Part shown: positions 24,734 through 58,151 of the stretch, piece after piece
Numbering within the stretch: the stretch's first letter is position 1
Layout of the letters: each line of letters starts with the position of its first letter
Assembly: GCA_958009085.1 (NCBI GenBank)
Contig: OY253677.1
Span: 248,001 to 312,000, forward strand
DNA from: Protoeuglena noctilucae
Lineage: Eukaryota
Reading direction: 5' to 3'
Length of the DNA stretch: 64,000 nt
The notes under the pieces: generated by a model
Seen by the model: the letters and a program-made list of their open reading frames with translations, nothing else
Told to the model about the DNA's origin: nothing
Databases searched by the model: none
Translations under genes and position numbers: made by a program

Positions 24734-26768
24734 ATGGGATGCTGCGCGAGTAGGCCACCCAGGGCAGGCGCCTCCCCGCCCCGCCCTGTGGCGGAGCCGG
24801 ACGCCCGGCCCAAGGACCGTGACGAGATAGTCACGAATAGCACGTCGGAGGCGCCGGCGGGCTCTGCAAGCCTGTCCCGGAGTCCCTCCGCGGTCATCGA
24901 CCGCCTCGCGCCAAAACAAGCTCGTTTCGAGTTTTTAAGGGACGCCGACTTGCTTGAAGCCAGCTATATGGTGCGCGGTGGTTTTGCCGCAAGCGACCGC
25001 GCTACCACAGCGCGATGCCGCGTGCAAACAATTTTGTGCGTGTATGCCGCAGCCGGGGACGCGCGAGTGGCTGGACGAGGACATCCGCAAGTGGGTGATG
25101 CAAGAAGAGCAGGGTGATGAGGGAGGCGCGCGGGTTCTGCTTTTGCTGGGGCCGGCAGGTGAGGGCACAAATGAGGACAAGGGCGTGACCTTTGCAGGCC
25201 GCACAAGAAATGCCCTCCTTCCCTGCAGGCGTGGGAAAGACGGCGTACGCCGCTCACGCCGCCTCGCTGCTGGAGGAGGAGGGCCGCCTCCTCGGGGGCC
25301 ACTTCTTCCGCGCCCGGGACGCCACCCGCACTGACCCCGCCACCGTGGCACGCGCCCTCGCCTGCCAGGCGGCCGCCGCGGTGCCCGGAGCCGCCGCAGC
25401 GTTCGATCGCGCTCTCTCGGAACTCGAGGCGGGCCCGGATGGGGGACTGAGCCAGCCGGCATCTGCGTGGTTCAGCAGGTGGGGCAGGGTCACGCTCTGC
25501 ACAGCCATGTCGGATGCCTCTGCCTCGTCATCCGCGCCCGCTCGTTCTCGCAGGCTGGTCGCGGACCCGCTGCGGGAGGTCCCTCGCCCCGCCGTGCCCC
25601 GCATGCTGGTGCTGGACGCGCTGGACGAGGCGGCCGAGGCGGCGGTGCTGCAGGCGGTGGCGCTGTGCGTGCGGAGACTGCCCGGCTGGGTGCGGGTGCT
25701 GGCGACCGCTCGCCCGGGCGGCCGCGTGGACCGTGCCCTAGAGCTGCTGCGGGTGCGGGTGGTGGACCTGGGGGGGGAGAGGGCCCACGAGGACGTGCGG
25801 GCGTTTGTGCGGGGGAGCCTGCGCACGCGGGGGCTCTCGGACGAGCAGCGGGAGGCGGCGGTGGAGGCGGTGGCCTCGCAGAGCGGGGGGTCGTTTGCTT
25901 ACGTGGCGGCCATGCTGTCGATGGTCCGCCGGGAGATGCGCGAGGGGGGTGGCCCTGCCTCTGCGCGCGGCCTCGCGGACACGGCCGTCGGGGCACTGCC
26001 GCCGGGGGAGGCGGGGCTGTTCACGGGGTACCTGAACAGGCGAGGGACGCTGGCAGTGCGAGGGAGGGGCAGATGGGAGGTGCGATGCATTGGGACTGCT
26101 GCAATAGCAGAAGTGATGCCATCTGTGCAGAGAGGCGCAGCGTTTGGGGGAGGCGGACCGTGAGGCCATGCTGGAGCGGCTGCTGCCGGCGCTGGCGGTG
26201 GCGGCGGGGCCCCTCCACCGGTGGGAGGCGGAGGCGCTGGCAGGGAGCGCCCGGGCGGTGACGGCAGTCGCGGAGCTCTTCCCCACCGACGCAGAGGGTC
26301 TCGTAAGGCCGTTCCACGAGTGAGTCACGCCAGAAGGTGGCGAGAAGCTAGTTTACGCTCTCTTCACATCATCGATGTCATGCCTGCTCCCGCTGCGCCC
26401 CCAGGTCTGTTGCGGACTGGCTCGTGAACGGGGCGCCGCCTCCGTGGCGTGTGGACCCCGCGCAGGGACACGCGGCGCACGTGCGGGCCTGGGCCCCCTT
26501 TCTGGAGCACATGGATGGTGGGGGTGGCGCCACGCTGGGCCCCTATGCCGCGGCCCACCTGGTTAACCACGCGGTGCGGGGGGGCGCGCTGGACCTGGCG
26601 GCCCGGGCGTGCGCAAGCCGGGGCTTCCTTCGTGTGGCGTTGGCGGTGTGCCCCGCGTCGCACGTGGTCGGGGAGGTGGTGGAGGCGTCGCGTGCCTTGC
26701 ACGAGGCCGGGCATGCGGGGTCCCGGGGCGCCGTGGAGGCGGCGGAGTGGCTCAGGTGGGACGAGTGA
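24734..26768 (+). CDS. NACHT/STAND-class P-loop NTPase with N-terminal MGCC acylation motif
   Basis: MGCCASR start, PGTREWL, Walker A split by an intron (LLGPAG|VGKT), GHFF, Walker B MLVLDALDE, VLATAR, SGGSFAY and PFHE|SVADWL...VDPAQGH. Stop at 26768. Confidence 0.85.
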
Positions 26769-29214: not shown

Positions 29215-31030
29215 ATGGGCGACGCCCATGCGAGCAAGGAAGGGGCTCGCCGCTGGACATGGGCTGTGGCTGGAGCGATCACGACGATCGCGATGTTAGC
29301 CGGAGGCATGGTAGCGATGCTCAGCAAGGCCAGTTGTTGGACCCTCGCGCCGGTGAGAAAGACCTTGCGCACGAACGCTGCCTGGGTGGGTCCCACGAAA
29401 GGTTTTCGAGACGATTCTTTGCATGTTGACGACTTCTTTGTTCCCAGGGTGACATACGGATGATGGCGCCGGGGAACGCGGCCCAGCGAATGTTTGCGGA
29501 TCCCCCAAAGGGGGGACGGTTTGCGCTCGAACCGTGGACCGCGGAGGGGGCGGCGGGGAGGCTGGCGGGCACGGGCGCGGTCGGTGCTACTCTGTCGGGG
29601 CAGTTCGGGGCCTGTTTGGGGGACATCGTGCGGGGCCCAGACCCGGAAACGTTCCGCGCATCAGGCACCTTCACGGCCGCCGATTTCCCGGCGATGCGCG
29701 CGGCCGCCGATTCGCAGGGAAGCCTGCAAGTGTCGCACAGGGCCGTGCTGGACACGGGCGCTCCGGTGGCCGCGCAGCTGGCGCAGGGGGGCCTGGACCT
29801 GTCCGGGCAGCGCGTGGTGCTGCTCACGGGCACCTCCCCGCTCAACTTCCTCGGCAACGCCTTGCTGTGGCTGGCACGCACGGGCATGCTGACGCGAGCT
29901 GTGTTTGTGTTCGAATCGGAGGACGACTGTCGGCGGCTGGAGGGCGTGGCCCCCTGCTGGTGGCACGACCCAGCATCGTGGGGGGACACCTTCGCAGCCG
30001 GAGTGACGGGCGCCGTCGACCGCCACTGCGTCCTGGGCGCCAACCTCAACACGGTGCTCTCCCGCCCCGTCAAGTGGTTCTGGGCCTGGCAGCTGATGCG
30101 GGAGGGCTTTGACGTCGTCCTCATGGACCCAGACGTGGCCCTGTTCCGCAACCTGGTGGCCGACGACTACGGGCTCTGGCAGGCGAGCGATGAGAGGGTG
30201 TCAGGCTGCGGTGCTGGAACGCCGTGCTGGACCAGGCTCGCGCGCACCTCGCAAGCGGCGCCTGCGCTGCCTGGCCTCATTCGCAGGACACGTGGGACGT
30301 GGCTGGGCTGTCCGACGCCCCCATGGACGGCGACAGCCTCGCGTACTGCCGCTTCGGCCCATGCCTCAGCACGGGGCTCGTCTTCCTCAAGGCCAGCCCG
30401 GGGGCGCTGGCCCTGGTCGAGGCGAGTGTCGGTACCATGCACAGCCACGGGGCATGCCCCGTCGCGGCCGTCATGCGGAGTCGCCTTGGGCACCGCTTGG
30501 CGCAGGACGTGGTGGCGAGGCTCGAGATGGGACAGTGCCTGGAGTGGGAGCAAGAGCTCTTGAACGACATCGCCCGCCACGACCGGTGAGGTGGCCGCTT
30601 GCGCGCACCCGCCAGGATCGTGAGAGGGCAGTTGGGCTGCACGAGCAAGCCTACTCACAAAGCAATCCCCGCCCTGCAGTCTCCCCATGCACGTCTCCGT
30701 GCGGGAACTCCCCCGCCGCTTCTTTGCCAACCTTCCGGAAGCGCTGCTGGCTTCCCAGCCTGGCACGAGGGACTTTGCCCCCTTCGACATGCACGTCGTG
30801 CACCTGGGGTACATGGGCAACAAGGAGGCGGTCATGTGGTGCGTCACGGGGTCAGAGCAGGGAACCTGGGGTGGCTTGGGTGTTTGGTCGCACATCTCGG
30901 GTGGCGTTGCGTCCGCAGGTGCGTTGGCCTTTGGAAGTACGACCCTCGTGCCGTGGATCCGTCGCTGGACTGGACGCAGTGCCCGCTGGTGGCCCAGCAC
31001 CCGTCCCTGCTGACCAGCACGCTCCAGTGA
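29215..31030 (+). CDS. Nucleotide-diphospho-sugar transferase (GT77/PF03407-like), paralogue 2
   Basis: N-terminal TM segment, KWFWAWQLMREGFDVVLMDPDVALFRN (DxD), CLSTGLVFLKASP, WEQELLN and HVVHLGY. Collinear with paralogue 1 (for example PWTxEGAAGRLxGTG and EDCRRLEGVxPCWWHD). Confidence 0.8.
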
Positions 31031-31311
31031 CGATGACGCACCTCTCGTTGTTTGGGCAGGAGTAGGACCAGGTGGATAGGACCCTTGTTGAGCTACCCAG
31101 CTTTTCGCACACACCCGGGGACGCCAGTGAGGGTGTGGCAGAGGTATGCATGGAGCCATGGCCTGCGCAGCCCGGTGACTCGGGTCTCGAGGAGGCTCAC
31201 TCTCCTCACAGGAGGCGGCTCACTCGCTTCGCCGTGTGGGACAGGTACTAGCTTCTAATTTAACAGTCGACGTTTCTAGCGCCCTCGGGCTAGGGGAGCC
31301 AAAAGCTAGTC

Positions 31312-34300
31312 TCAGAGGAGGAGGGCGACAGCACCCAGCACCACCAGGCCCGAGCTGACCAGGGTGGCGGCGGCGCCGCTTTTCTTCGTCGGCGCGGGCG
31401 TGGACGAGGGCGTCGAGGAGCCGGGGCCTGAAGTGGGGGCGGGGGTGGGGACCGTCGCGACGGATGCCACCACGGACGGCACCTGGAGATTGTACAGGGC
31501 CGAGGTGGGGTCGGCCGCCGCGGCGATGAGCGCCGACTGGATGGAAGTGGCCAGCGCCGAGCCGTCCCCAACCGCCGTCACGAGCGCCTGGGCCGCCGTG
31601 TTGGTGGCAGCAGCCACAGCCACGTTGAGGTTCACCGCCACCTGCGGGTAAGAACGGGCGAGTGAGATAAATGTACCCAGCTCTGTGAGGCCTTTGACAG
31701 TTAACATGCAGCATGCAAGCGCCCTCAGCAAGCAGCAGCACTCACGTCAAGGAGCGCACGGCGCGACGTGGAAGCCGTGACGACGACTGACGAGGTGGGC
31801 ACGCCGAGCTTGGTGGCAACAGTGCTCTGGATCTGGGCCTCGATGGCGGCAAGCTGGACGCTCGAGGGCTGGGTCTTGAACGAGAGCGTGACCGTGAACT
31901 TGGCCTGGGGCGTGCCCGAGGCGATGGGCGTGGGGGTCGGGAAGAGGTCGTTGATGACGATGTTCATCGAAAACACGTCCGACGTCTGGTAGCCCGAGCC
32001 TGCTGTCTTGGGGCTGCACGACAGCACCAGCGTCGTGGCCGAGCCGGTGACGCTGGGCATGGCCGACAGGTACACTGCCGTGGAGGACGTGCCCACTGCT
32101 ATGTCGGGCGTGGTGGCCGTGGAGGACGCCAGGACCGAGCCGGTGTAGGTGGGGGAGTTCTTGGCGTTGGTCAGCGTGCAGTCGACCGTGACGGCCTGGT
32201 TGAGGGCCTCCAGGTTGATGAGCTCGCCCGCCGCGTACTGCGTCTGCTCAATGGCCTGGATGGACGTGACCTGGGAGCCAGCCGTGAGCGCCTTGCCCTT
32301 GGAGTCGGTGACAATGGCCTTGGTGCCGGTCACAAACACCACCGTCTGGTTCCGCATATATACGTCAAACTTGGCCGCCTCGGTCGTGTAGCCGCCGGCC
32401 GACGACGAAGGCGTGCATGTGTAGGTCACCGTCTTGTCGGCGCTGATGGTCAGCGAGGTCGGGATGGCGACGCTGACGGCGCTGCCGCCCACCAGGTTGC
32501 TAGTCGTGGACATGGAGAGGGTGGACGTGACGTTGGGCAGCGTGGCCGTGTCGCTCGACGTGCACGTCACTGAGACAGCTGCACTCGGGGGGACTGTCGT
32601 GTAGAGCTTGACCAGGGCACCGGACGTGCTGCTCTGGAGCTCGAACACGGCCGGCGTGAGCGAGGCCGAGCCCGAAGTCAGGAGGGTGCCGCTGGCGACA
32701 GACGTGCCACTGGCGGTCGTGGCAGAAGAGCCGGCCACAGCCACCAGGGCGCGGGCGAGGACCACCACGTCGAACTTCACGCTCTCGGTGCCCTTGTAGG
32801 GCGACGAGGCACACACCACCGTGCACGTGTAGGTCACGGTCGTGTTCTTGGTCACAGCTGCAGGGTTGGGCAGCGACAGTGCCGTGCCGGCGTTCAGGAG
32901 GCCCGAGACGGTAACGTCCGTCATCACGGACGTGTTGTTCGAGGCGCAGTAGACGTCCACTGCCACCTCCTTGTTGGACGAGTCCATGGCGGGCGTCTTG
33001 GTCATCAGCTTGACCACGTCGTTCCGGCCAGCGTACATGATGAGCAGCGGCGCCAGGGAGGCGGTCGTCGAGTAGCCGACGTTGGTGTCGGCCGTGATGG
33101 ACAGGAGCGTCGTGTTGTTAATGGCGGACGAGCCTGCCACGGCCATCAGGCCGTAGTAGTACACGTACACGTCAAACTTGACCGAGTCGGTCGTGTCCAG
33201 GCCGCCGGCCGCCGTCGTCGGAGCGCACGTGTAGGTCACGGTCGTGTCGCCGGTCAGGGTGCCCATGGGCGTGGGGATCTGGATGTTGACGGTTGAAGTG
33301 CCCGAGACGGACAGGCCTGTGATGCTGGCCAGCACGGTTGAGGCGCTGCTTGTGCAGCCGAACGTGACCGTGGCCGTGGCGTTCAGGCTGATGGTCGCGA
33401 TTGCGCCCGAGGTCGTCGACTGGCCGTACATGAGGGCCGGCGTGATGGCGAGCGAGCCGCCGCCCGAGATGTCCGTGCCGGACGCGAGCGCCAGGTTGTC
33501 CGCGCGAATGGCGGAAGAACCGGCCTTGATGGCGGGCTTGAGGGCCTTGACCTTGACGTCGAAGAAGACGGTGCCCGTCACGGTCGTCTTGGCCGCGGCC
33601 GGGGTCGTGGGGGCGGGGGTGGCCGTCGACGCGGGCGTAGAGGCCTGAGTGGCAGCGGGGGTGGGCGCCGTGGTGGCGGCCGGCGTGCTAGAGGTAGTCG
33701 CTGCAGGCGTCGGGGCGGGTGTGGGCGCGGCCACGGAGCCGGGGGTGCACGTGTAGGTCACGGTGGTGTCGGCCGAGACGGACGAGGCCACCGGGATCGT
33801 GATGGCCACGGCGGTGGCGGTGGACAGGGACACGTTGATGTCCGCGAGCACGGTCGAGTTGCTAGACTTGCACGAATAGGTCGTGGCCGTTTGGGGGGCC
33901 GCCGTGGCCTGCAGGGCCACGATGGTGCTGGAGGCCGCCGCGCCCTCGTACACGACAGGCGTGCGCGAGGCAATGCCCGACCCGAGGATGGAGCCGCCGG
34001 CAGTGAGGGTCGTGGTCCCATCAGCGGCCGTGCCTGCAGCCGAGCCCGCCACAACCTGGGCGGTGGGGTTGGAGACGAACACGTCAAAGGTGACGCTCAC
34101 GGTGGTCGCGAAGCCGCCAGCCGCGGCACTGGGGGCGCACGTGAAGGTGACGAGCGTGCCCGCCGAGACGACCGCGGGAGTGGGGAGGACAAGGTTGACG
34201 GCGGTGGTCGTAGAGACAGAGGTGGCCGCCACGTCGCCGATGACGGTCTTGTTGCTCGACGTGCACACGTAGCTGACGGCAGCCGTGGGGGCCACGTTGA

Positions 34301-37300
34301 CCTTCAGCGCGACCGTGGAGCCTGCCGCGTAGGTGACGCCCGCGTAGAGCTGCACCGTCTTGGCCAGGGACCCGCCGCCACTGATCTTGGTGGACGTGGA
34401 GAGGGGCGTGTTGCCATCTGCGGCTGTGAGCGCCGCGCTAGGGTAGACGTCGACCATGCGGGGCACGACCGTCACGTCAAACGTGAACGAGTCGGCCGTG
34501 GTGAGGCCGCCCGCGTTGGCCGTAGGGGCGCACGTGAAGGTGACCGTGGTGGCCGTCGAGACGTCGCCAGCAGCGCCGAAGGTGAGGCCCACGGCTGTGG
34601 TGGTAGACACGCTGGCCGTCACGTCCGCGAGGGTCTTGCTGTCCGAGGACGTGCACTTGTAGGTCACGGCGGCCGAGGGAGTGCCGTTGGCCACCAGCTG
34701 GACGAGGGCGCCGGCAGCGGGGGTCACGGTCGTCACGATCGTGGGCGTCTTGGCAGCGTTGCCAGAGGCCAGGGCAGTGCCCTGCGCCAGCGTGGCCCCG
34801 GCTGCCGTGGTCGCAGCCGTGCCGGCCTGGGCAGACACGGCCAGGGGCACGACCGTCACGTCGAAGGTGAACGTGTCGGAGGTCGTCACGCCGCCCGCGG
34901 CGGCCGTGGGGGCGCACGTGTAGGTCACCGTCGTTGCCTTGTCGATCTGGCCGCTCTGGGGCAGGCCCACCGATACGGCCGTGGTGCTGTTGACCTGGAC
35001 CGACGACACGCTGCCGAGCACGGACGTGTTAGAGGACGTGCACGAGTAGGTGATGGTCGCCGTCGGTGTAGAGTTGGCCTGCAGCGCCACCACATTAGAG
35101 ATGCTGCTCGCCGCTGCCAGCTCGATGATCTGCGGGGTGGCTGACGCCTTGCCGGACACCAGCATCGTGCTGGTGGTCATGGCCGTCTTGCCATCCGTGG
35201 CCGTCTGGGCGGTACCGCTGTAGGCCGCGACCACGATCGCCTTGACGTGGACCGTGAAGGCCACGCTCTCGGATGTCGTCAGGCCGCCCGCGCTGGCCTT
35301 GGGGGTGCAGGTGATGATCACGTCCGTGTCGGCGTTGATGGAGCCCGGGGTCGGCAGCGTGATGGCCGCCTTGGTCGACGACAGCGTCACGTCCGAGATG
35401 GTCCCGATCACGCTCGAGTTGTTGCTCGTGCAGGCGTACGTGACCGAGGCGCTCGTTCCGCTGGTGGCGGGCGTCGTGTTGGCCAGCAGCTCGACGGTCG
35501 TGCCAAGGCCCGTCGACTGGCCCTCGTACATCACGAAAGACTTGCCCGAGGGCAGGGCCGTGTCGGCGGCCAGGGTGGTGCCGTCGCCCAGGGTCTGCGA
35601 CGAAGCAGCCGCCGCCTGGACGTTGACTGCCACCACGTTGACCCAGAAAGTCGCAGAGTCGGTCGTGGCCAGGTTGCCGAACGCCGCGGTGGGAGCGCAC
35701 GTGTAGCTGACCTGCACGTTGGTCGAGCCCATGTTGGTCGGGGCGGGGAGCGTGATGGCGTCCGCAGTCGTGTCATTGGTAATGGAAACGGAGACGATGT
35801 CCGGCATGATGTTGGAGTTGCTGGACGAGCATTTGACCGTGCCCGTCGCGCCCGGAGCCGTGTTCTGCTGCAGCAGGACCTTGGAGGTGTCGGAGCCCGC
35901 GCCCTCAAAGACCTGCACCGCCAGCGCGGCGTTGTACGTGCTGCTCGTCAGGTCGGTGGATGTGCTGCCGAAGGCCGTGGCGTTGCCGTTCAGGACGGTG
36001 GTGGCCGCGGGGACGGGCGTCAGCTTGGCGCGCATGACGTACACGTCAAACTTGACCGTGTAGTTGGACGGGGCCGTGCCCGTGAAGACGAACCCGCCGC
36101 CGCTGGTAGGCGAGCACGTGTAGGTGACAGTGGTGTCGGCCGAGATGCCAGTGACCGCCGGGATCGTGAAGGTCACGCTGGTGCTGGAAACGGAGAAGGC
36201 CGCCACGGCGGGGGCGATCGTGTTGCTCGAGCTGCAGGAGAAGGACACGGTGCCCGTGGCGCCCTGCGACCCCGTGGGCGTGTAGTTGAGCTGGAGGCCA
36301 ATTTGGCCGGTCGACGCGGACCCCTCGTACAGCACGGGCGTCATGGATGTCGAGCCAGCCGTCGAGTAGCCGATGGACGTGCCCGAGGCGATCGTGGTGC
36401 CGTCCGACTGGCGCGTCAGGGTGGATGCGCTGACCACTGCCGAGACGGAGCGCGGCATGATCGTGACCTGGAAGCTCACGGCCTGGCCCGCCGTCACGCC
36501 CGTCGGCGCGGGGGAGGACGCAACCGTGCAGGTGACCGTCACAGTCACGGCCGACGTGGTGGCGGTGGGGGCGCCAAAATCGATGGAGGCCGTGGTGGCA
36601 CCGCTGACCGTCACGGCAGAGGGGCTGGCGAGAGCCGCGGTGGTCCCGCTCACGCAGTTGACGGTGGCCGTGGCCGAGTTGCCGAACGAGAGCGTGGCGA
36701 TGGCCCCGGCGGCCGTGTCCTCACCCTCGAAGATGCGGGGCGTGAGGCACGTGGAAGTGCTGAGGACGGTGCCCGCCGTGATCTGGGCCGTCGGCATCGT
36801 GCTGCGGTAGGCTGCAGAGCCTGCGACCGCCTGCATCTGGGGCGTCACGTCGAGGATGAAGGCCGTCTTGATGCTGGACCACCCGTTCGTGGAGTCGTTG
36901 GCGGTGCACTTGACGTAGAACTTGGTCTGCGTCACGTTCTGGATCGTGATGGCCGTCGTGGTGGCAGAAGTGCCCTGCGCGGCGATGTTGTTGGCGGTCG
37001 ACGTGCCCGTGTTGGCGGTCGTGGCGAACGTGAACGTCTCAGAGGTCGTTCCGCCCACCGTGAAGGCGCTCGAGGCCTTGGTGGAGAAGGCCGAGTCGCT
37101 GTACGCCGTGCACGACACGACGCTGCCGCCCGTCAGGGGCGTGTCGGCGGACCCGTTCTGGAACTTCAGCGTCACCGAGTCGCCGCCGACCTGGGACACC
37201 TTGCCAAAGGCCGTGCTCATTGTCGGGTTGTTCATGGCCCAGACTGACGTGGTGTTGCCACTGACCTTCAGGAGGACGATGTCGCCATCCGCCACGGACG

Positions 37301-40300
37301 GGTAGGCGGTGCCCAGGGTCAGGTTTCGTGCAGTCGTGGACCCGGACGTGCCGAACGATTTGGTGTAGTCGGTCGAGGTGGCGGAGTTGGGGAGGTTGAT
37401 TGTGTTGCCGCTCGTGCACGCGACGCTGATGGAAGCCCCCGCGTTTGCGCCGTTGAGCTTGACGGCGAGCAGGTAGCCCGCGGTCGGCGTCATGTACTCC
37501 TTGTCGACGACCTTGACCGTGCTGGGCACGATGGTCCCCGAGCTGAGGGAGCTCCCGCTGGTCAGGGACGTGTTGGAGCCAGCCACAATGAGGATCTGCA
37601 TGGGCTGAATCACGATGCTGACCGAGAAGCCGTCCGAGGTCGTCAGGTGGTTGGCCGCCGTCGTGACCTTGCACGTCAGCGTGATGGTCTTCGAGGTCGT
37701 GATGGAGTTCGGGGTGTTGAGGGTCACGTTGACGGCAGTCGTGTCCGTCACGGCAGCCGCTGTGGGGGTCGCGCTGAAGTCGCTCGTCCCCGACTCGGTG
37801 CAGGTCAGCGCGTTGGCACCGCCAGAACTGCCGTTCAGCGCCACCGTAAGCACCGTGCCGCCTGCATCAGCCTGGCCCTCCACCACGACCACCTGGCCCA
37901 GGGAGCTGCTGCCGATCGTCGACACGATGGCCGTGTTCGCGCCATACGCCGTCAGGTTGCCCGTGCTGTCGACGGACTTGTAAGCAGCCGACTGGGCTGT
38001 CACGATGAAGCCCAGCGGCTGGAGCGTCAGGTTGAGCTGGAAGCCGTCCGATGTTGTCAGGTGGTTCCCCGCGGTGTTGACCTTGCATGTCAGAGTGATG
38101 CTGATGGGGGAGCTCAGGTCCGCCACCGTCATCATGTCCATGGCCACCTGGGTCGTGTCGGTGACGTTCGCAACCGTGGGCACAGTGCTGCTGGCGAAGT
38201 TTGAGGCGGTGGTCGTCGTGCATGTGAGGGCATTGGCGCCCCCCGATGCACCGTTCAGCGAGACCTTGATTGTGTTACCCGCAGTGTCGGCCTGGCCCTC
38301 GAGCAGGTACACGGTCGTGTTGGAAGTCCCGCTGATGGCAGCGGTGATGGCCGTGGCTGTGCCGAACGTGGTCAGCGCGTTGGTGGACGCCACGCTCTTG
38401 ATGGCGCCCGTCTGGGCCGTCACGATGAAGCCCAGCGGCTGCAGGACGATGTTCAGGCTGAAGCCATCGCTGGTCTGCAGGTGGTTGCCCGCCGCAGCCA
38501 CCGTGCACGTCAGCGTGATGGTCTTGGCCGTGGACAGGTCGGCGATTGTGTTCATATTGACAGCCACGTTGGTCGTGGTCGTCACGGGGAGGACGGTGGG
38601 GACGACACTGTTGGAGAAATCAGAGGCGGTCGTCGTCGTGCACGACATCTGGTTGGCGCCGCCCGAGTTGCCGTTCAGCTGCACCTGGAGGACCGTGCCG
38701 CCCACGAGGGCAGCCGTGACCCCGCCGAGCGGGTTCCCGAGCGCCGTCGCGTTGGCCGCGCTGACCGTGAACGTGAGGGCCGTGGACACGTTGGAGCCAG
38801 TGAGAGCGTAGACGACTTTCACCGTAACGTTTGCAGCCCAGGTGCCTCCGAGGTAAACGACGTCCACTGCTTTCACGTTGGTGTTCTTCGCGATGGCATT
38901 GGCCCCGGCGACGGTCCCCGCCGCCGTCGACACCACCGTGGGAGTGGTCGTCTGGGCCGTGTTGGCCGTGCCTGCCGTGATGGTGAAGGCGTTCGTCGTG
39001 CTGAGCGCGGCCGTCCCATTCAACACCTTGGACAGGGCGGCCGCGAGGGCGCTTGCGACAGTGGTGGTCGACGCAACAGAAGTTGAGTCGAGCGTCAGAG
39101 TGACGACGACGTTCCCGATGGTCACCGTAACGGTGTTGCCGGTCGCAGGAGTCCCGCCGATGGTGACCGTGTCGACCTGCTTCGTGCCCGCCGCGTTGGC
39201 CGTCGTCGTGGCCTGGGTAGCCGTCGTCGCAGTCCCCCCCGTGGCGGTGACCGTGTAGGTCGGCAGCGCCGTGCCCGCCGTCGCGGCGGTGATGGTGACC
39301 ACATTTGTGCTGCTGGAGATCGCGGCGCCGCCGAGCTGCGGGCCCAGCGCAGTCTTGAGCCCCGCGATGACCTGCGCCAGGGTCGTCCCATCCGTCGAGT
39401 TGACCGTGTACTTCCACGACACGGCTGCACCGGTGGTCGAGTCGGCGACAGTGATCGTGTCGGTCGCCACAAACGTGCCGCTGAGGGCGATTGCGTCTAC
39501 CTGCTTTACGTTGGTGCTCTTGGCCATAATGGCGGAAGCGAGGCCCCCCACGGCGCTGGAGCCTGTCCCCACCTGGGCAACAGTGACCGTGTACGTGTCA
39601 ATCACCGCATTCACCGCTGTGGCAGTGAGCAAGAGGACGTTGTCCGTGGCGATGGTGGCGCCGCCAAGCGGCGAAGCCACCGCGGCCTTGACCCCCGCGG
39701 CCACGTTGGCAAGCGTCACCCCGTCGGTGCTGTTGGCCGTGTACGTGACCGTCGTCTTCACGTTGGTCGTGTCCACCTCCACGGCCACGGTATCGGTCGC
39801 AACGTAGGTGCCGCTGAGGGCCACCTGGTCCTGCTGGAACGCAGTGGTACTCGCTGCAACAACACTTTGCTTAGTACCTGCGGCACTTGACCCTGTCCCG
39901 ACCCTGCTAACGGTCAGCGTGGTCGTGAACGACGAGTTGACTGCGCCAGCCGTCAGCAGCAGCGCCCCGGCCGTCGAATCCGCGTCAGTCTGCCCTTCCA
40001 GCAAGAAGACCGTGTCATTGCTCGACCCGCCCTTCACGGCCGTCAGCGTCGTGGCAGAGCCGAACGGGGTGAGCACGTTAGTCGACGCCACGCTCTTGGT
40101 GGCGCCCGACTGGGCCGTCACGATGAAGCCCGGCGGCTGGGCGATGACGTTGACAGCGAACCCGTCGCTTACCGTTACGAAGTTATCCGCTCCGCTGCTG
40201 ACGACGCAGGTGACGACTGAGGAAGTCGCCGTAGCTACGTCGCTGAAGGTCTTGAGGTCAACGCCGACCCCGGTGCCAGACAACGAGTTGGCGCTCGCCA

Positions 40301-42140
40301 CGGCGGACGCAAGGGCGGGGGTGGCCGAGTACGTCGCCCCCGTCGTCGAGCAAGTGAGGGTGTAGCTGCCCCCCGAGGGCACGGCGTTCATGTAGACCTT
40401 GAGCGTGTTCCCAGAGCTGTCAGCCTGCCCCTCGAGGCGGTACACTGTGCCGTTGCTTGGACCGTTTACGACGGACACCAGCGCCGTCTCGGCGGTGAAG
40501 TAGGCGAGCTCGTTCGTGGTCTCGATGCTCTGAATGGCCGTGGTCTGGGCTTTGACGATGAAGCGCACGGGATCAGCGATGACCGTGAAGGTCACGCTAT
40601 CGGTGGTGCTGAGCCCGCCAGCGGCCGAGCTGGGGGCGCACGTGACCGTGACGGACTTCTGCGCGCTGATGGCGGCAACCGTGCCGATGGTAACGTTGAC
40701 GGCGGTGGCAGTAGAGATGGTGCTGGCGACCGTCACGCTGGGGATGACCGTCGTGTCGCTGGGGGTGCAGGTGATGGTCACGGCAGCGGTCGGGGCCGAG
40801 TTGGCCTTGATCGTGACCGTGCCGCCCGCAGTGTCCGCCTGCGCCTCGATGCGGACCACCTGATTGTTGCTGGATGTCAGATCCGTGTTGGCTTTGAAGT
40901 TTGTGTACGTGCCATCGGTGTTGATGGACTGGATGGCGCCGTTGGCTGCAGTGATGACCAGCTTGAGCGGGGTGGCGGCCACGTAGGTTGACGCCGTGCT
41001 GTAGACGCGCCCGGCGGCGTTGGTGGCCGTGCAGGTGAGCAGGATGTTGGAGGCGGTGCTGATGGACTGCACTGCCGGCAGCGTGATGCTCGAGGCCGAG
41101 GTGCCCGAACCGCTGGCGATGGAAACCGTGTAGTCGGTGCTGGTCGTGCTGTTGGCGAGGACGGCGCTCATGGTGCTGTCGACCAGGCACGTGACTGTCA
41201 GCCCCTCGGGGGCGTTCTGGTCCAGGACCACCTTGAAGAGGCCTCCGGCCCCGTAAGCGTTGCCCTCGATGGCCTGCACGCTGTCGTTGGTCGTCAGCTT
41301 CTGATTGGTCAGGAAGTTGGCCCCCGTGTCGCCGCGCATGGCGCTCGTGCCGGGGACGATGGAGAGCACCAGCGGAGTCGCCGTGACGGTGGCGGTCGCC
41401 ACGTCGGTGGACGTCGTCTTGGCCAAGGAGAGGTAGGCGCCCGTGACATCCGCCGCGACGGTGCACGTCACGGTAGCATCCACGCCTGCCGGGATGGGGT
41501 CCACGACGTTGACCGTGAAGGCGTACGTGCCAGCCGTCAGGGTGCTCGGGAGGGTGGTGCCCGAGGTCGCGCTGAGGGAACACGTGATGGTGACGGCCGT
41601 CGTCCCCGCCCCGCACACAAGGCCGGAGGCGCAAGCCGAGCCGGCTGTGAGGGAGGGGAAGGAGACGGTGACGGGGGCAGTGGAGCTCGCCGAGGCCAGC
41701 GTGTACTGGTTGCTGGCGGCGACGGGCGAGGTCGTCTTGGAGGTGACGGTGACCTTTGTGGCGCTGCCGATGCTGCCGGTGGTGCCTGACGTGCAGGTCA
41801 GGTCGAACGAGCCGCCGTCCGCGACGGGGGAGATGACCTGGAGGACAATCTGGGCGTTGAAATCCGCCACCTTGGAGCCGCTTGTCACGACGATGGCGGG
41901 GCCACTGACCAGGGCCGTGGTCGCATCCGTCGTCGTGCTGCCCGTGCCCAGGAGCGTCGACTTGGCCGCGTAGAAGGCGAGGTCAGCCGCGTGCGCGAAG
42001 CCCGCGAGACCGAGCGCCAGGGCGCTGGCGAGGAAAAGGGACCTGCGGCGAGGTAGTAGGCGGAGACAAGGGTGACGACAAACGGAAGAAGCGAAGCGCA
42101 TCCACCGGAATGCAACGTGCGCGGAAACTCACTTGAACAT
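31312..42140 (-). CDS. Giant (~3,544 aa) secreted T/S/A/V-rich repeat protein, putative GPI-anchored adhesin or cell-surface protein
   Basis: Exons are 42140-42133 (ATGTTCAA), 42042-31746 (10,297 nt, open throughout) and 31641-31312. The spliced N-terminus MFKSLFLASALALGLAGFAHA is a signal peptide. It has about 20 two-Cys beta-rich repeats, an SRRALL motif, a PT linker, and a hydrophobic C-terminus KKSGAAATLVSSGLVVLGAVALLL. Confidence 0.88.
31950..41400 (-). repeat. Tandem intragenic protein repeats of about 120-130 aa (about 20 copies)
   Basis: Recurring pattern EG...VxLxxN..P...V(T/S)(Y/F)xCTSS...T(L/I)P...TTVTYTCAP..AAGG.TT.D..(F)DVxV. Near-identical DNA (gtcacgatgaagccc) recurs at about 38000, 38420 and 40117. 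Confidence 0.85.
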
Positions 42141-43829
42141 CGCGGGGAACGCTCTAGGTGGTCGCGTAAAGCGCCAGGAGGCCCAGCCGGAAGAGCCGTT
42201 CAAAGCAACGCCCGTGCTGTCGACCCCAGAACTCCCTGCGAAGGTGCGGGAGAGACATAAAATGCCAGCTGCGATCGGGTGCCAGTAATTCGCTGGCCGC
42301 TGCGCCCGGCAGGCCTCCCAGCACGTGAATTCCGCAACGGCCCGCCGGGTCGCGTCCTGCACAGAGCTTGCAGATTAGGAAGGCCTGAGCGGTAGCCGCA
42401 CGCACCTGAGGCGGGCAAACTTGCGAGGCCGAAGAAGGGGCTTTCCCTGCACCGGAGCCCCAGGAAATCCGCAATCGGGATGCCGCGGCGTGCCCCGCGG
42501 TGCGTTGAAAGGTGACTGGAAGAAGGACGACGCGCACGGCCATGAGGGGGGGCTCGCAGCGCCGGACGCTCGCCGTGCAAGCTCTGCTTCGCGCTCGTGG
42601 GTCTGACACTGAGTCAGCACAAATTGGAGTGTCTGACCGGAGCCCCTCATTGTGGGAGGCCCACCAAGGCAACGGAAGAGACATGTAATAGTGCTGTAGT
42701 GTTTTGGGCGATGAAGAAGCCACCCAGATGCAAAGAGAACTTTTTTCGATTCTTCTGCGATTTTGTTGCGAAACGTTTGCGCTAACAAAAGCCTCTTCTA
42801 GGGCCTGAATGGAATATTTCATCAGTGTTTATTATTGATGAGATTTTTGTTTTGATTTTCACACAATGATGGCAAAACCTGTAATTAAGTTTTTCTTCCT
42901 AGGCTTTCATGAGCAACGCGAAAATTTCATCAACGTCTGCTTTTGTCTTCGATGCAGCAGAAAGCGTTTACAAGGCGCCTTATGCTTCTTTGCGCATTTT
43001 TTGTTACAGAAACGCACATTCCCCTTTTTTACGGATTGTTTGGTTTCCGATTGTGGGACTGGAGGCTAAAATTGACGTCGAGAAAAAAATGACGGGTCGG
43101 ATAATCGCGTGGTTTGCAAGTGCCCCACGCAGAAACAGTGCTGAGTGCCTTGAAAATTTCCCACATAGTTTCCGTGTACATATCGAATTATGTTTGCCCC
43201 GTAGGAAGGCGCGGGGCTCCTCTTGAGGCTCGTAGGCGCAGGTGCGCCTTGCCCTCTCGGTGTGTGGCTAGGGCGGGCGTTACCGAGGTCTAGGCTGGCT
43301 CGGGCATGCGTTGTTGCTTAAACGCTTTCAATTGCCCAGCCCCACGCGCAGAGCGTTGCGCGTTCGGGGGTCACCGAGTTTATCCATCTCTCCACGTCCC
43401 CCGTGCCGAAATCTACCCGTAACGGAAGTAACGCTCTCGTTCCATCTTGTAGGTCCGGCGGCGGCCCTCTAGGCTTTCCCCAAACGACGCGGGACCCACC
43501 CAGTCATGCGTTCCATCCTACGAGCGAGCCATGGAGCCATGCCAGGCCCATGAGCAGCCCGACTCATCGCCGGCAGATCCTGAAGCTATCGAAGCAGCTG
43601 CCCTCTTGCACCTTGCGCCTTGCCAGCCGCTACTTCGCGTGCCCGTGGGAATGCCGCGCCCCCATCCCATCCTAACCCGGTTTCCGAGGGCAAACTGCGG
43701 TGCCAAGGGCTGTTCATACGTTTCTCTCACTGTTTCAAAATGCAGCGGTTTTGCACACAGGCCGCACCCTCCACCAGCGCATCCTCTAAAGCAATCGTCG
43801 CCGCTTTCGCCCGCTTCCGCCAGCCTCCG

Positions 43830-46800
43830 TCAGTTCATGGACCCCGAGCAGTTGGGGGCGCCGCAGTCGCACGGGATCTTGCCGTCCTCGTCTTCCTGCG
43901 GAACGAGATTCCCGCGCCGGGGATGAGCGGCCCTCACGATCGGGCACCAGCATAGCACGCGCACCCTCCCTCACGCGCCCCCCTCGCCTGGAAGCGGTAG
44001 TTGAAGGTGAGCTCCTGGCCCATGCGGATGTCCGAGCGGGAGATGAAGACGAGGTGCTCCCTGCCGTCGACCTCGACCGTCTTGGCGTACATGCACGGCG
44101 TGCAGGCGTGGTTGGCGAACCGCGCGATGTGCCCGCGGTCCGTGGCGTCAATTACGGCGTCCCCCAGCGCGAACAGGTAACAGTCCTTGCCGCGCGCGCG
44201 GTACCCCCGCTCCCTCACGTCCGCCACGGGCCGCCGCACCACGTCCCCCCGGTACTCGGTGATGAAGGTGTCCTGGGGAATGGCGCGGCGGGCCATCAGG
44301 CCCCAGCCGTGGATGCCCGACTTGCCGAACACGATCGTGTCGCGCTCGCGCTCCAGCATTTCCTGCGAGCGGGGGCGGCTGCCATGGAGCGGTCCCTCCA
44401 TGCTCCATCGCCATTGCAGGTGCTTCTCCGATGCGGCGCGCCCCCCCTCGCCTTGAGCCTCTGCTTGATGGGCTTGGACGCCCTCGCCGCCCGCTTCCTC
44501 CCCGCCAGCTCCCGCAGCTGCTGCCCCAGCTCCCGCTGCCTCCGCCGCAGCGACTCAAGGCTCTCCTGGCGCGACTGCAGGTCCCGCTGGCACCGCGACA
44601 TGTGCTCGGCCACCAGCTGCGGGGGAGGGGGGAGAAGTTGGCCACACACATGCTGAAACTTGATGACCAAGTCGACCCACCCACCAGCGTCACAAACGCC
44701 AACTCCCGCACCTGCGGCAGCACTTGGATCTTGAGCACCGGCTGCAGGCTCCCCAGCGGGAAGGTCTGCGTGACGTGCCCCGACACGGCCGTGCTCTGCA
44801 TGGGCACAGCCACCTGCGCCTCCGCCTGCGCCTGGCTCATGCCCAGCAGGTGCGCCAGCTGCAGCGTCAGGTTGGTGGCCCACGTCTGGTGGAAGATGGC
44901 CAGGTGCGAGTGGCGGGCCTGGGGCGACAGCCCTGGGTGGCTCATGATCTCCTGCACCGTCGAGTCCTGCAGCGACAGCTGGCGACGCAGGGCCTCCACC
45001 ATGCTGCGGGGGCAGGGAGGGCAGAAAGGGTTGGTGAGAAGGGTGGCAAGGGTTGTACCATTGCCACACGGGTCCAGGGGCAGCCTCGAGCGCTCTGCAA
45101 TGCGCGCACATCTGTCGCATGGCCATCGCCGTGTATAGCAGACCACCGCCGCCCCAACCGCCACATCCCCCTCACCGCAGCCGCCCGATCAACGCGTCCA
45201 CCTCCTTCGCCACCCCTGCCAGCTCCTTCCCCACCCCCTCCAGCTCCTTCCCCACCGCACGGTGCTCCGCCTCCCGCCGCGCCTCCTCCGCCGCCGCCTC
45301 GGCTGCCCCCGCGCCCTCCTCCTCCTCATCCTTCACCCCGTCTCCCGCGCCCTCACCCTCCTTGCCCGCTCCCTCGCTCTCCGACGCGCGGCTTTCGGGG
45401 CGGCCCGCACGCTGCAGCCACGCCTCCCCCTCCACCGCCTGCGACTCGGGGAGCTCGCTCCACCGGCACCGGCGGGGCCCGCCCAGCACCTGTGCTGTCG
45501 CGTGCACGAACGCACGCTTGCCCGCCCGAGTGGGAGGGCCGCGGGACGTCGAGCCGCGAGGCGCCACCGCCGCCGCTGCCGCCGCCGCCCCGGTCGGGCG
45601 GGGACCCACGGGGCCGGCCCCCGCCAGTGCGGACATGGCGACGCCCCCGCCTCCCTCGGCCAGGTCCTGGGCGTCGTCGTCCGTCCGGCGCGCCTGGGGG
45701 AGGGAGACGTTGCAAGTGGGAGCGTGGCATGAGCACGAGAGGCTGGCCGGTGGCAGAGGGGAGGCTGAACATGCACAGCCACTGCCCTGCCCTCGCCTGC
45801 TTGCATATCACGCACAGGCAACCGTCCCTGTGCCTCCCCGGCCCCCCTCCCCTCCCCTTGGGCCTCCCCGGCTTGACTCCCCGCACCCCCGGCGGCCCCT
45901 GCTGCGCCCGGGGCACCTCCAGCCCATGCGCGATGAGCCAGTCCCCCACCGTCTCGCCCTGCCCTGCGAGCCACGAAGCGAAGGCCAGGGATGTCAGAGC
46001 GAGGTGTCAACCGTGTCGCATCCCCCGTTTGCAGAGCCCTTCACCATGCCTCCACCCCCATCCGCTCATGTCACCCGCTCCTGTCCCCCTCGTCGTGCCC
46101 CCAGAGCCCCACCCGCTCACCGGTCTCTCTGAGTATGCGTATGGTGGCCTTCCACTTCTTCGACGACTCCTTCCCCGCCAGTCTCTCGAACTCCGTGGGC
46201 GTCACCTGCCGTCCCGTGTCCTCCAGCACCACCGACATGTGGCGGGGGCGGAAGGTGCCGCGGAGGCTGCGGGGGAAAGAGGGGCGGTGGGTAGGGGGAT
46301 GAGCGCGGAGGTGCGGTGGAGGGGTGCGGTGGTAGAGGCGCAGGGTGCGGTGCGTGAGGGTGGCCCTGTGGCATTGACAGCTGCAATTGTCATTCTCATC
46401 CCAGTTTCCGCATCCGCATCCTCGCCTTCCGCACATGACCTTGACTTCCTGCGGCGCGTTGCCCCCCAGTCCCCCCAGCCACTGCACCACCTCCCGGGAC
46501 AGGTCCAGCTCCTCCATCTCGCGGTCGTCGTAGAGGATCAAGTGGCGGCCCGTCACGGGGTTGAAGCCAGTCACTGCGAGATACGAGACACTCTCGGAGC
46601 GTGGCCGTTGAGCGAAGTTTGCCAAGTAGTACGTTGTGCGCGTGTATCCAGGCCACCTCACGAGCACAGCGCCAAACGGCCGCGTGCACCCCATGCAAAC
46701 ACCCCCACCAGTCGTGCACAACCCTCTCACCCGTGCCGGGGTAGTAGATGTCGTCGTCTGCCCAGTAGACGTTGATGCGGTGGCCGATGCGCTCGGGACC

Positions 46801-55664: not shown

Positions 55665-58151
55665 ATGGCATTCGCGACCATGCTCGCATCGACCGGGGGG
55701 GCCGGGGCGTGCCGGTTCAGGTGGGTGCCGGCGCTCAGGTGCCATGGAGGTAGTCCGGGCTTTATAGCAGAATGATGATGCACAGGGGGAGCATGTGAGG
55801 CGCGGGTACCCCTGGACGCGGCTCAGGATCGCTCCGGGCTCCGCGTGGAGGCCGCGCACCACGAACACTCTTTATCCCGGGCGGGCGCGCCAGCTCCGGC
55901 GCCTGCGTGGTCGTTGCGGGCGGCGGGGGTTTGCTTCCCCTAAGCCCGCGTCATGAGCTGGCTTTCAACGGCGGGGAGGCGCGAGAGCAGCGACAGAAGC
56001 CCGCGTTCGTGGCGGCCGTGCTCGCGTCGCGGCCAGGCGACTCCGAAGTCGGCATCGCCCGGCTGACCTGGTCCTCTATGTTTCCTCCGCAGGCCGGCTG
56101 CCGCGGTGGTTAGCAGGTCCAGCGCGTTTGCCGGGTGCGTGGCACCTCGGACGCTCGCGACGCCCCGCGCCGTCCTCCGCGCGCCCCGGGGCTCCCGGCT
56201 GGTCGTGCGTGCAGAAGAGGATTACTACCAGGTGACTTGATGCACACCGTCCGCCGCGGCCGAACGGGTCGTGCGCCCCACCGCCGCTGCGCGACGGGCC
56301 GCCCGCTGCTCTCCGCCGAAGATCCTCGGGGTGGGCCGCAACGCCTCCGTGAAGGAAATCAAGTCGGCGTATCGGGCCAAGGCCCGCAAGCTCCACCCGG
56401 ACGTGAACAAGGAGCCGGGCGCTGAGGAGCAGTTCAAGCGGGTGAGTGCGCTTTGGTTGCTTGCCCCCGCTCCCATATCATGCGCTGCAATGCCGACTGG
56501 TCGCCAGCCGCGAGCTGTGCTCACACTTCGTTTGTGGCCCGTGCGTCTCAGGTGTCCCAAGCCTACGAGGTCCTCAGTGACGATGGCAAGCGTCGCATCT
56601 ACGACCAGTTCGGGGAGGCGGGGCTGAGGGGCAGCTCGGGAGGCGCGCCGGGAGGCTTCGAGTACTCGGATCCCTTTGACATCTTCTCGCAGTTCTTCGG
56701 GGGCATGGGGGGCATGGGAGGCATGGGGGGCATGGGAGGTGAGGAGGGACGGGATAGGGATGAGCAGTGGCACGCAGACCGACACCAGGGGCTCGCTGAG
56801 GGATCTGCAGTGCAAAGTGCGACGGCCGCAGTCCCCGCTCGCCACGTCCCAAGCGCACTGCGCCCTTCGATTCTCCTACAGGCATGGGGGCGCGTGCCCG
56901 CCGGCCGATGAATGGGGAGGACGAGCGTGCGGACCTGCAGCTGGACTTCTTGGAGGCGGTGTTCGGGTGCCAGAAGGAGATCGACGTGTCCCGGCTGACC
57001 GAGTGCGGGACGTGCAACGGGTCGGGGACGGAGCCCAACACCACGCCCTACACGTGCAGCACGTGCGGGGGCACGGGGCAGGTGGTCACGGCCGCACAGG
57101 TGGGTGCTGGGTGCAGTGTTGCCGGGCAGGGCACTTTGCTTGGTGCGGTGACGAGTCTGGCCTGCATCCATTCTTGTAAGCACGGTGCCGGCCCTCGTGC
57201 CGTTCCAGCGAGGGGCGCGTCGTCGGCAGTATCGCTTCCTGTGCCGTGCTGGCTAAGCGTGAGTTCAGCACAATCAATCGCTGCCTGGTCGCTGTGTTCC
57301 GCAGACCCCCCTGGGCGTGCTGCGGCAGGTGACGGCATGCCCCGACTGCCAGGGCACCGGGCAGCGCTTCACGCCCTGCAACAAGTGCGGGGGCGAGGGC
57401 CGCGTGCGGGAGCGCAAGAAGATCATGCTGCGCATCCCAGAGGGGGTCGACTCGGGGTCGAGGCTGCGCGTGCGGGGGGAGGGCAACGCGGGCAGGTGAG
57501 CGAGCGCGGGGCGGGGCGCTGCACCGAGAGCGCGTGGGTGCGGGACCAAGGACGATCGCGGCTTGTATTTGCACGTCAGTCTGAGGCACCGCCGATGCTG
57601 ACACCTGGCCGGGTCCGCTGAGCGGGCCCCCGAGGTCCCCCGCTGCAACGCGCCTTGGCTGCCTGTGCGGGCTCATCTGTTAAGTTATGATTGTGAATGA
57701 CTCCACGAGCAGCTGACCAGCACACGAGTGTTCTGCGATGCGTCCCCGCCCCTGCAGGCGTGGGGGCGAGGCGGGCAACCTGTACGTGTTCATCAACGTG
57801 CGTGAGGACGCGGAGCTGGCGCGGGACGGCTTCAACATCCGCAGCACGGTGGAGATTCCCTTCACGGACGCCATCCTGGGGACGACGGTGCAGGTCCGCA
57901 CGGTGGACGGCCCCGTGGACTTGAAGATCCCCTCGGGTACGCAGCCCAACACCACGCTGCTCATGTCCAAGCGGGGGGTGCCCAAGATGGGGCAGGGCGG
58001 GGCGCGGGGGGACCACCTGGTGCGCGTGAAGGTGACCATCCCGCAGAAGCTGTCCGGGGAGCAGCGGGCGCTGGTGGAGCAGCTGGCGGCGCTGCAGACC
58101 AAGGAGGAGCGGCCCAAGGCGGGGGGGTGGTTTGGGAGGCGCAAGGAGTGA
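55665..58151 (+). CDS. dnaJ: Type I DnaJ/Hsp40 co-chaperone, chloroplast-targeted
   Basis: Transit peptide ending [13 protein letters not shown]-domain with HPD (KLHPDVNK), G/F region, four CxxCxGxG motifs, and C-terminal domain ([29 protein letters not shown]). Confidence 0.96.

Follow-up and report, generated by a model that had tools for sequence, protein, structure and literature searches.

Gene structure and transcription

The window analyzed here, a 64,000-nt stretch of a Protoeuglena noctilucae contig, contains a stop-free minus-strand frame of 3,467 codons (31725-42128); its second-longest open frame encodes 702 aa. Three minus-strand coding segments, 42140-42133 (8 nt), 42042-31746 (10,297 nt) and 31641-31312 (330 nt), join into a 3,544-aa product with no internal stops. 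The two coding introns, of 90 nt (42043-42132) and 104 nt (31642-31745), both have GT..AG ends. The spliced gene has a GC3 of 0.90, and the protein consists largely of T (18.6%), A (15.3%), S (12%) and V (10.8%), with 3.9% Pro and 1.3% Cys; it contains 46 Cys and 46 N-x-S/T sequons.

Alignment of RNA contigs indicates that the gene is transcribed and spliced. The 104-nt intron is skipped in all four RNA runs (X1, X2, X5 and X7) and the 90-nt intron in two of the four (X1 and X7); such contigs prove presence rather than absence, and no single contig covers the entire gene. RNA depth is found in 30/30 bins of the giant exon (31746-42042) in run X1, with no internal splice joint listed, although contig depth is no gauge of the abundance expected for a coat protein. 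Upstream, a 170-nt 5′-UTR intron with GT..AG ends (42236-42405), spliced in X2 and X7 out of the four runs, separates a non-coding 5′ exon (42406-42500, known up to 42500) from a 103-nt exon 2 (42133-42235), which comprises 95 nt of UTR and 8 coding nt beginning with the ATG at 42140. The 3′ UTR (31246-31311) extends to a poly(A) end at ∼31246, marked by a loose T-run in X1.

An earlier, sequence-only reading of this DNA had proposed an expressed gene with an uninterrupted 10,297-nt exon and two coding introns, all of which the open frame and the RNA contigs bear out. Its 8-nt coding first exon is half right: the 8 coding nt are real, and also retained in paralogs on C3, C18 and C23, but they close the second exon because the 5′-UTR intron lies upstream. 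Its description of neighboring genes as broken by introns agrees with a spot check of the DnaJ gene only, whose Pfam matches are spread over 5 separate frames (56241-58148). The long exon is the least surprising feature of the locus, since several homologs and paralogs have frames equally long.

Domain organization

The protein, encoded throughout on the minus strand, begins with a signal peptide (aa 1-21; 41988-42140) that spans the first coding intron. By inspection, it has an A-x-A before the likely cleavage site, and its hydropathy is 2.3 over aa 5-16. A diverged Cys-containing region follows (aa 24-230; 41361-41981), which some homologs (P0010 and P0013) also have and which has no Pfam match at 0.001. 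HMMs then place two-Cys repeats 1-3 (aa 231-638; 40137-41360) and 5-7 (aa 1219-1594; 37269-38396). Between them, repeat 4 is split into an N-terminal half (aa 639-694; 39969-40136; profile positions 3-46) and a C-terminal half (aa 1118-1206; 38433-38699; profile positions 41-124) by a Cys-free insert of about 420 aa (aa 695-1117; 38700-39968). A diverged two-Cys module (aa 1595-1738; 36837-37268), detected by the self-trained HMM only, is also present in P0009, P0010, P0013 and P0014. It precedes a conserved 12-repeat stalk (aa 1741-3367; 31950-36830), delineated by the family HMM, which includes a Pro/Thr loop (aa 2772-2825; 33576-33737). The C-terminus consists of a juxtamembrane domain of alpha/beta type that carries an RRxLL motif (aa about 3380-3495; 31462-31913) and a GPI-like signal (31312-31386). 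The RRxLL domain, the Cys-free insert and the paralog family described below are features that the sequence-only reading missed.

The two-Cys Ig-like repeat

The self-trained HMM detects 20 repeats and the family HMM 19, in agreement with the predicted number of about 20. A chain of two-Cys repeats does run through the protein as had been supposed, but residues about 695-1117 belong to a different, Cys-free module. The repeat period is about 125-135 aa, with the Cys pair mostly 40-49 residues apart. The two Cys are invariant in 29/29 aligned repeats, and 215 of 272 family modules contain exactly two. An AF2 model covering three repeats (pLDDT 93.9, pTM 0.80) consists mainly of beta-strands, with a single short helix in each repeat, and its best single-domain fold matches are PapD/MSP-like Ig domains (Z 7.7-8.3, rmsd 2.2-2.9 over 89-104 residues), although models of this kind usually reach a Z of about 8 as background. 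The repeat is modeled with confidence as a PapD/MSP-like Ig beta-sandwich, in line with the Ig-like fold proposed earlier. As to the disulfide-pinned, rod-like chain of that proposal, the pTM suggests that the inter-domain angles in the model are fixed, though not necessarily straight.

The repeat falls outside named families, and the sequence-only reading had recognized none. Pfam searches returned nothing at cut-off for the whole protein and its parts, and none for 11 homologs (0/11; P0013 was left out as too long). PHROGs contained nothing for the two-Cys repeat or for the Cys-free module, whose alignment drew only scattered single-member matches, mostly of unknown function. The whole protein has no real match among PDB sequences, FMG1B included, and the top 60 PDB rows for the repeat profile, mostly antibody-domain noise, were discarded. 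ESM Atlas scores for the two-Cys repeats are under 0.9. Foldseek matches to ciliary central-pair ASH-domain arrays, cadherins and viral Ig arrays were considered generic tandem Ig because of TM-scores under 0.4 and high rmsd. The repeats define a new Ig-like family without a Pfam model, comprising 262 modules in 23 proteins.

The repeat recurs in about ten giant proteins on other contigs. The combination of signal peptide, repeats, RRxLL domain and hydrophobic tail is found in P0005, P0010, P0013 and P0047, while in P0018 the repeats are accompanied by the RRxLL domain and the tail. Among homologs, the order of the last 12 repeats is maintained (64/84 best matches); therefore, the stalk is old. 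The intragenic duplication proposed earlier is thus retained as an old event in the stalk, while recent change has come from duplication of whole genes and from exchange among the paralogs. A search of metagenome loci with P0005 retrieved its own contig alone, and word searches of the open literature found no description of the repeat family, or of the Cys-free module in eukaryotes.

A Cys-free cassette inside repeat 4

The insert consists of three full modules and probably a fourth that is circularly permuted; the latter is modestly supported, its leading piece scoring 14.6 bits compared to 10.0 for a control repeat. In the model, the module has the outer-domain fold of tail sheaths and flagellins. 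Its fold matches are a phage tail sheath, a T7-type nozzle, P. aeruginosa FliC, FliD, GbpA and a crAss capsid protein (PDB entries 8kee, 9khy, 8i4m, 4nx9, 8gul and 7qof), with Z values (rmsd, residues) of 11.3 (2.8, 91), 10.4 (2.5, 88), 9.4 (2.6, 93) and 9.2 (2.7, 97). Of 48,161 chains, 9 reach a Z of at least 8, and all of these belong to phage proteins, flagellins or GbpA. Foldseek found no match at E 0.001, with the same families heading the list. Such outer domains are also used in phage and flagellar proteins as inserted, outward-facing domains; here, in contrast, the fold occurs in a eukaryotic secreted protein, nested within an Ig-like repeat.

Sequence comparisons suggest, albeit weakly, that the module is homologous to prokaryotic copies. 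Identity to solved structures is 13-18%, and a weak match (E 4.5e-8) links the module to a bacterial flagellin-family (FlgL-like) protein. A reciprocal profile built from 12 bacterial modules retrieved algal modules in 10 of 11 matches, with 0/102 among controls. The Cys-free profile matched only tail sheath among PDB sequences (E 0.056 and 2.1). In ESM Atlas, the insert scores 0.92-0.93 to unnamed clusters, with leads to Flagellin_IN and crAss auxiliary capsid at 0.88. Recent transfer, or an identified donor, is unsupported because the module profile matched 1/201 bacterial genomes (at E 1e-3) and 0/3 in a separate set, and tblastn with the insert found no match in 50,697 phage records; no close prokaryotic donor was thus found in the genomes and phage records searched. 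The GC3 of the insert (0.87) is similar to that elsewhere in the gene (0.89-0.91).

The cassette bears on the possibility that the protein is a specific adhesin or receptor, in which the stalk would serve as a spacer, while the cassette together with the N-terminal region would bind a defined partner such as a polysaccharide, bacterium, substrate or mate. A conserved stalk carrying a variable head is an adhesin architecture, the module matches GbpA (8gul, Z 8.1), and tandem fold matches include FdeC, cadherins and intimin. One report likens GbpA domain 2 to a flagellin domain projecting an alginate-binding domain (PMC3257281). However, Pfam searches revealed no known binding domain, the tandem matches are generic (rmsd 9-17), and most homologs lack the cassette: none of its four modules occurs in P0005, P0006, P0008, P0009, P0014 or P0047, while P0010 and P0013 have single module copies. 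We regard a dedicated adhesin as unlikely, though worth serious consideration.

Paralogs and signs of sequence exchange

The genome contains a paralog family with signs of gene conversion and with copies broken by mobile DNA. The insert is the most divergent part among paralogs. Identity between the gene and the C18 copy is 98-100% over 38400-41200 and mostly 86-91% elsewhere, whereas the other three paralogs are 55-62% identical in the insert and 90-95% in the stalk. RNA variant clusters agree with paralog letters (11/11 for C18, 8/8 for C3). These patterns, together with broken copies that could serve as donors, are compatible with a variable decoy or evasion coat, whose paralogs would be exchanged or expressed in turn, altering the surface met by viruses and grazers. 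We consider this improbable: close copies number only about five, most of them distant from contig ends, and young duplicates commonly undergo conversion that serves no function. Mosaic RNA contigs may have arisen when co-expressed paralogs were assembled into chimeras, and they did not count as proof that recombinant alleles exist.

Juxtamembrane domain and probable membrane anchor

The last exon ends in a Pro/Ser/Thr linker, small residues and a hydrophobic tail that runs to the stop codon. A hydrophobic, uncharged C-terminus is found here and in 5/5 homologs read to a complete C-terminus, and the paralog tails are alike. The signal peptide, small omega residues, hydrophobic tail and lack of a cytosolic end, as judged by inspection and hydropathy, are those of a GPI protein, which upholds the proposed pairing of a signal peptide with a GPI-like tail on the last exon; GPI addition, like RRxLL cleavage, is a judgment by eye.

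The RRxLL domain is cut by the last intron directly after the motif. In SEA-domain tethered mucins, a juxtamembrane alpha/beta domain places a cleavage loop between a glycosylated ectodomain and the anchor, and the autoproteolysis motif is GSVVV. From its sequence, the RRxLL domain would share the position, the alpha/beta character and a likely cleavage loop. However, the dibasic RRxLL replaces GSVVV, and the ectodomain is made of folded repeats rather than PTS tracts. RRxLL is conserved across the homolog alignment and GSVVV is not. Neither Pfam nor PDB sequences yielded a match for this domain to SEA or any other family.

Comparison with known algal surface proteins

The closest analog is FMG1B, a chain of 34 Ig-like repeats that each contain a short helix and a single disulfide (PMC12021028; PDB 9GOS), which is N-glycosylated, membrane-anchored and forms an anti-adhesive coat (PMC12021028). 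FMG1A/FMG1B and the protein described here, itself a predicted surface protein, are giant green-algal proteins built as chains of low-identity Ig-like repeats, in which every repeat has a short helix and a Cys pair; they also share many N-glycan sites and more than one paralog per genome. They differ in repeat length (110 aa in FMG1, about 125-135 aa here) and Cys spacing (about 31 columns compared to mostly 40-49). The C-terminus of FMG1 comprises an IDR and a multi-helix TMD, whereas the present protein ends in the globular RRxLL domain and one terminal hydrophobic stretch; it also lacks a Cys-rich coiled domain and contains prokaryote-type modules. 9GOS is absent among the sequence and fold matches listed, where one fold search skips chains over 3,000 residues.

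Chlamydomonas MST1 is likewise a secreted green-algal protein with tandem Ig-like domains (PMC11015965 and PMC10602792), and 8wa2 matches with a Z of 6.6. The host is a flagellate, so that a flagellar hair or scale subunit was considered. The MST1 mastigoneme protein has a Cys-rich domain and a long polyproline-II helix (PMC11015965), the parts that build its filament. The present protein has neither tract (46 evenly spaced Cys, 3.9% Pro), and its GPI-like membrane-anchor signal points to single anchored chains. The suggested flagellar-hair role is therefore unsupported in the form known from MST1, a mastigoneme subunit is unlikely, and a hair or scale role in general is highly improbable.

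Functional implications

Once spliced, the transcript encodes a single chain of 3,544 aa that begins with a signal peptide and ends in a hydrophobic tail. We favor, with a probability of roughly 0.55, a GPI-anchored glycocalyx protein of the cell or flagellar coat, which is probably sheddable. The best reading is one of functional analogy to Chlamydomonas FMG1; homology is not claimed. The host genome contains IFT46 and green-type LHCII/CP26. Of the roles suggested earlier, coat component is favored over adhesin, the latter being weaker because loss of FMG1, the closest analog, raised adhesion (PMC12021028).

In such a coat, one disulfide would lock each repeat, and the repeats would be glycosylated. 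The 12 order-conserved C-terminal repeats would form a semi-rigid stalk that holds the variable N-terminal half tens of nanometres from the membrane (about 80-90 nm for a straight chain at 4 nm per domain). The insert would form a knob that loops out from repeat 4 and faces outward, and the RRxLL loop could be a processing site for coat shedding. Packed together, many copies may form a layer that is protective and regulates adhesion, like the FMG1 layer of Chlamydomonas cilia, and paralogs may provide variant outer faces.

A broader scenario is quite speculative. Giant GPI-anchored coat proteins may make up a so far undescribed family in marine green flagellates, one that recruited a phage-tail/flagellar surface module more than once, at three positions. 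Here it would form a four-module cassette, nested in an Ig-like domain and swapped among paralogs through gene conversion. A free-living alga would thereby obtain a changeable surface that acts as a mimic or decoy of structures of prokaryotes or viruses.

The surface of a small marine green flagellate is the first contact for viruses, grazers and bacteria, and its protein components are hardly known outside Chlamydomonas. This gene provides a concrete, expressed candidate, in which a phage-tail/bacterial-flagellum fold is found inside a eukaryotic secreted protein. It also supports the idea of the FMG1 authors that folded-repeat analogs of mucins are widespread and overlooked (PMC12021028).

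Gene structure and expression

The host genome assembly (26.3 Mb, 27 contigs) codes for IFT46 and for antenna proteins matching green-type LHCII and CP26; the host is a marine flagellate green alga. The giant gene (31312..42140, minus strand; window at G000:C10:248001-312000) contains a 3,467-codon frame at 31725-42128 (-), while no other frame in the window exceeds 702 codons. Joining 42140-42133, 42042-31746 and 31641-31312 gives a stop-free protein of 3,544 aa and defines two coding introns of 90 and 104 nt, both GT..AG. The stretch is present in 10 of the 14 listed RNA runs (3 studies), six of them marine metatranscriptomes.

Splicing was read from the contigs of four RNA runs (X1 and X2 from the same study; X7 possibly from the source organism), none of whose contigs covers the whole gene. 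The 104-nt intron is absent from RNA contigs in all four runs and the 90-nt intron in two, and an additional 170-nt 5' UTR intron is spliced out in two of the four. No splice joint occurs within the long exon in these contigs, which place the poly(A) end at ~31246. The giant gene is expressed and spliced. Both coding introns and the single long exon of the sequence-only reading are borne out by the RNA contigs, but its 8 coding nucleotides close a 103-nt second exon rather than lying in the first.

An AT-rich tract (42700-43200) lies 5' of the first exon in this window of 68% GC and is likely the promoter region. Beyond the poly(A) site, RNA contigs extend through 30900-31246, and a loose end at 30918 resembles a splice joint. 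This suggests that a neighbouring gene's transcript meets or overlaps the giant gene at its 3' end. Upstream, 43937-52000 (-) has SET and SAND matches, with PHD-like stretches discerned by eye, and probably encodes a trithorax-like histone methyltransferase. The likely secreted product of the multi-exon gene at 60998-63909 (-) matches heme peroxidase. It also contains a beta domain, judged FN3-like on inspection, and a Pro/Thr/Ala linker similar to the giant protein's loop. A fragment of an NPHP3_N/AAA (NACHT-like) ATPase is located at 25189-26160 (+).

The two-Cys repeat

In the giant protein, a self-trained HMM identifies 20 copies of the two-Cys repeat, and an HMM iterated on 23 proteins identifies 19; the latter recovers 262 modules overall and none from 46 control sequences, reversed or shuffled. 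Each of the 29 aligned repeats keeps both cysteines, and the repeat has no match in Pfam or PHROGs. AlphaFold2 modeling of three repeats (14 sequences; pLDDT 93.9, pTM 0.80) predicts mainly beta structure, each repeat including a single short helix. The top single-domain fold matches are PapD/MSP-like Ig sandwiches; the model aligns with the cystinosin N-terminal domain (Z 8.3, rmsd 2.2, 89 residues) and with WxLIP (Z 8.1, rmsd 2.8, 104 residues). Since these scores are close to the search background, we name the fold class and not the family.

A Cys-free insert of prokaryotic type

The sequence-only reading overlooked an insert at aa 695-1117. It has no cysteine, consists of a separate module type of ~100 aa and sits within one two-Cys repeat, whose upstream and downstream pieces cover profile positions 3-46 and 41-124, respectively. 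Three full modules are preceded by an apparent C-terminal third and followed by an apparent N-terminal half (14.6 and 21.2 bits, versus 10.0 for a control repeat); these flanking pieces are likely, with modest support, a permuted fourth module.

The module model (pLDDT 84) resembles a cyanophage nozzle (Z 11.3, rmsd 2.8, 91 residues), the tail sheaths of a cyanophage (Z 10.4) and Mu (Z 9.4), P. aeruginosa flagellin (Z 9.2, rmsd 2.7, 97 residues) and GbpA (Z 8.1), a domain of which is likened to flagellin in PMC3257281. All nine chains with Z of at least 8 are prokaryotic or from phages. Two distinct folds, the two-Cys repeat and the Cys-free module, are shown at the level of predicted models. 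In sequence searches, the Cys-free profile matched an unnamed protein and two members of the flagellin family, at E-values from 4.5e-8 to 3.4e-4. A reciprocal profile, built from 12 modules of those three proteins, gave 11 matches, 10 of them algal modules, and none in 102 controls. The homologs P0010 and P0013 carry single modules at other positions; these were in the first profile, and still outscored their own shuffles in the reciprocal test.

A recent transfer of the insert is countered by the lack of any phage match by tblastn, a single marginal match of the profile in 201 bacterial genomes, and a host-like GC3.

Homologs and paralogs

A query of three repeats against 1.84 billion representatives retrieved only 22 proteins. 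Six of them (P0004, P0007, P0011, P0015, P0017 and P0024), together with P0022 and P0048, correspond to paralogs in the host genome; the remainder includes unnamed giants of 2,984-6,044 aa with ~30-40% identity. P0005, the one homolog whose context was examined, lies on a GC-rich contig beside what is presumably a pseudouridine synthase gene.

In the seven homologs reaching the C-terminus (truncated P0014 excluded), the last 12 repeats find their best match at the same position from the C-terminus in 64 of 84 cases, against ~4 expected by chance. A domain with an RRxLL motif comes next, followed by an uncharged hydrophobic tail in all five homologs read to a complete C-terminus. In P0006, P0009, P0012 and P0023, similarity ends 2-3 residues past RRxLL, the position of the giant gene's last intron, which suggests that these four share the intron and that their carriers are eukaryotic. 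Homolog N-terminal halves vary freely.

The host genome holds four close copies (C18, C23, C3 and C10:413-425 kb), two additional C10 fragments, and distant relatives on C14, C6 and C10:83-96 kb. As assembled, only the C23 and window copies are unbroken: a 50-nt duplication shifts the C18 frame, a ~1.1-kb insertion with a ~16-nt direct repeat at its ends breaks the C10 copy (G000:C10:422100-423300, L012), and an 18-kb element interrupts the C3 copy (G000:C3:1595279-1613690, L014-L016). The broken C10 copy has a different, multi-exon 5' end. The C3 element is Polinton-like, with 43-51% GC and 305-bp terminal inverted repeats; its products include an rve integrase, an ATPase, a helicase/HNH protein of 1,155 aa and probable capsid proteins. 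A 1.6-kb host segment, duplicated at 98.8%, adjoins both ends.

Protein identity among paralogs is 90-95% in the stalk (the last 12 repeats) and 55-62% in the insert, except in C18, whose insert is 98% identical. Over 38400-41200, the DNA of the C18 and window copies agrees at 98-100%, against mostly 86-91% outside, the pattern expected of a conversion tract. Paralog letters are present in RNA variant clusters, whose contigs may be chimeric. Among the distant relatives, G000:C10:83287-95712 (L025-L026) is another giant gene, a single frame of 4,142 codons whose product combines diverged two-Cys repeats with modules of other kinds. G000:C14:6457-17971 and C6:1460628-1468666 (L021-L024) are close to contig ends and interrupted by a few introns.

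Proposed function

We favor a protective coat, at slightly better than even odds (about 0.55). The protein would be secreted and then GPI-anchored, with cleavage at RRxLL; one disulfide would pin each two-Cys repeat, the 12 C-terminal domains would form a fixed stalk, and the variable head may carry an outward knob. It is probably glycosylated (46 sequons, Thr+Ser 30%).

By analogy, the nearest known system is the Chlamydomonas ciliary glycocalyx protein FMG1, whose 34 Ig-like repeats, with one disulfide apiece, make up the outer ciliary coat, and whose loss increases adhesion, according to PMC12021028. The giant protein might instead be a specific adhesin, which we regard as less likely, or a variable decoy coat, which we consider improbable. 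A hair or scale subunit is very unlikely: the giant protein does not have the Cys-rich and polyproline parts that the mastigoneme protein MST1 requires, as described in PMC11015965 and PMC10602792. As a protective coat, the giant protein would work similarly to FMG1, yet we do not class it as FMG1, because it lacks that type of C-terminal anchor and its repeats are only possible homologs of the FMG1 repeats.

A word search of open papers found no published account of the two-Cys repeat family or of the prokaryote-type module in eukaryotes. Giant surface proteins built of folded repeats are already known; what is new here is an unnamed repeat family combined with a module of prokaryotic type.
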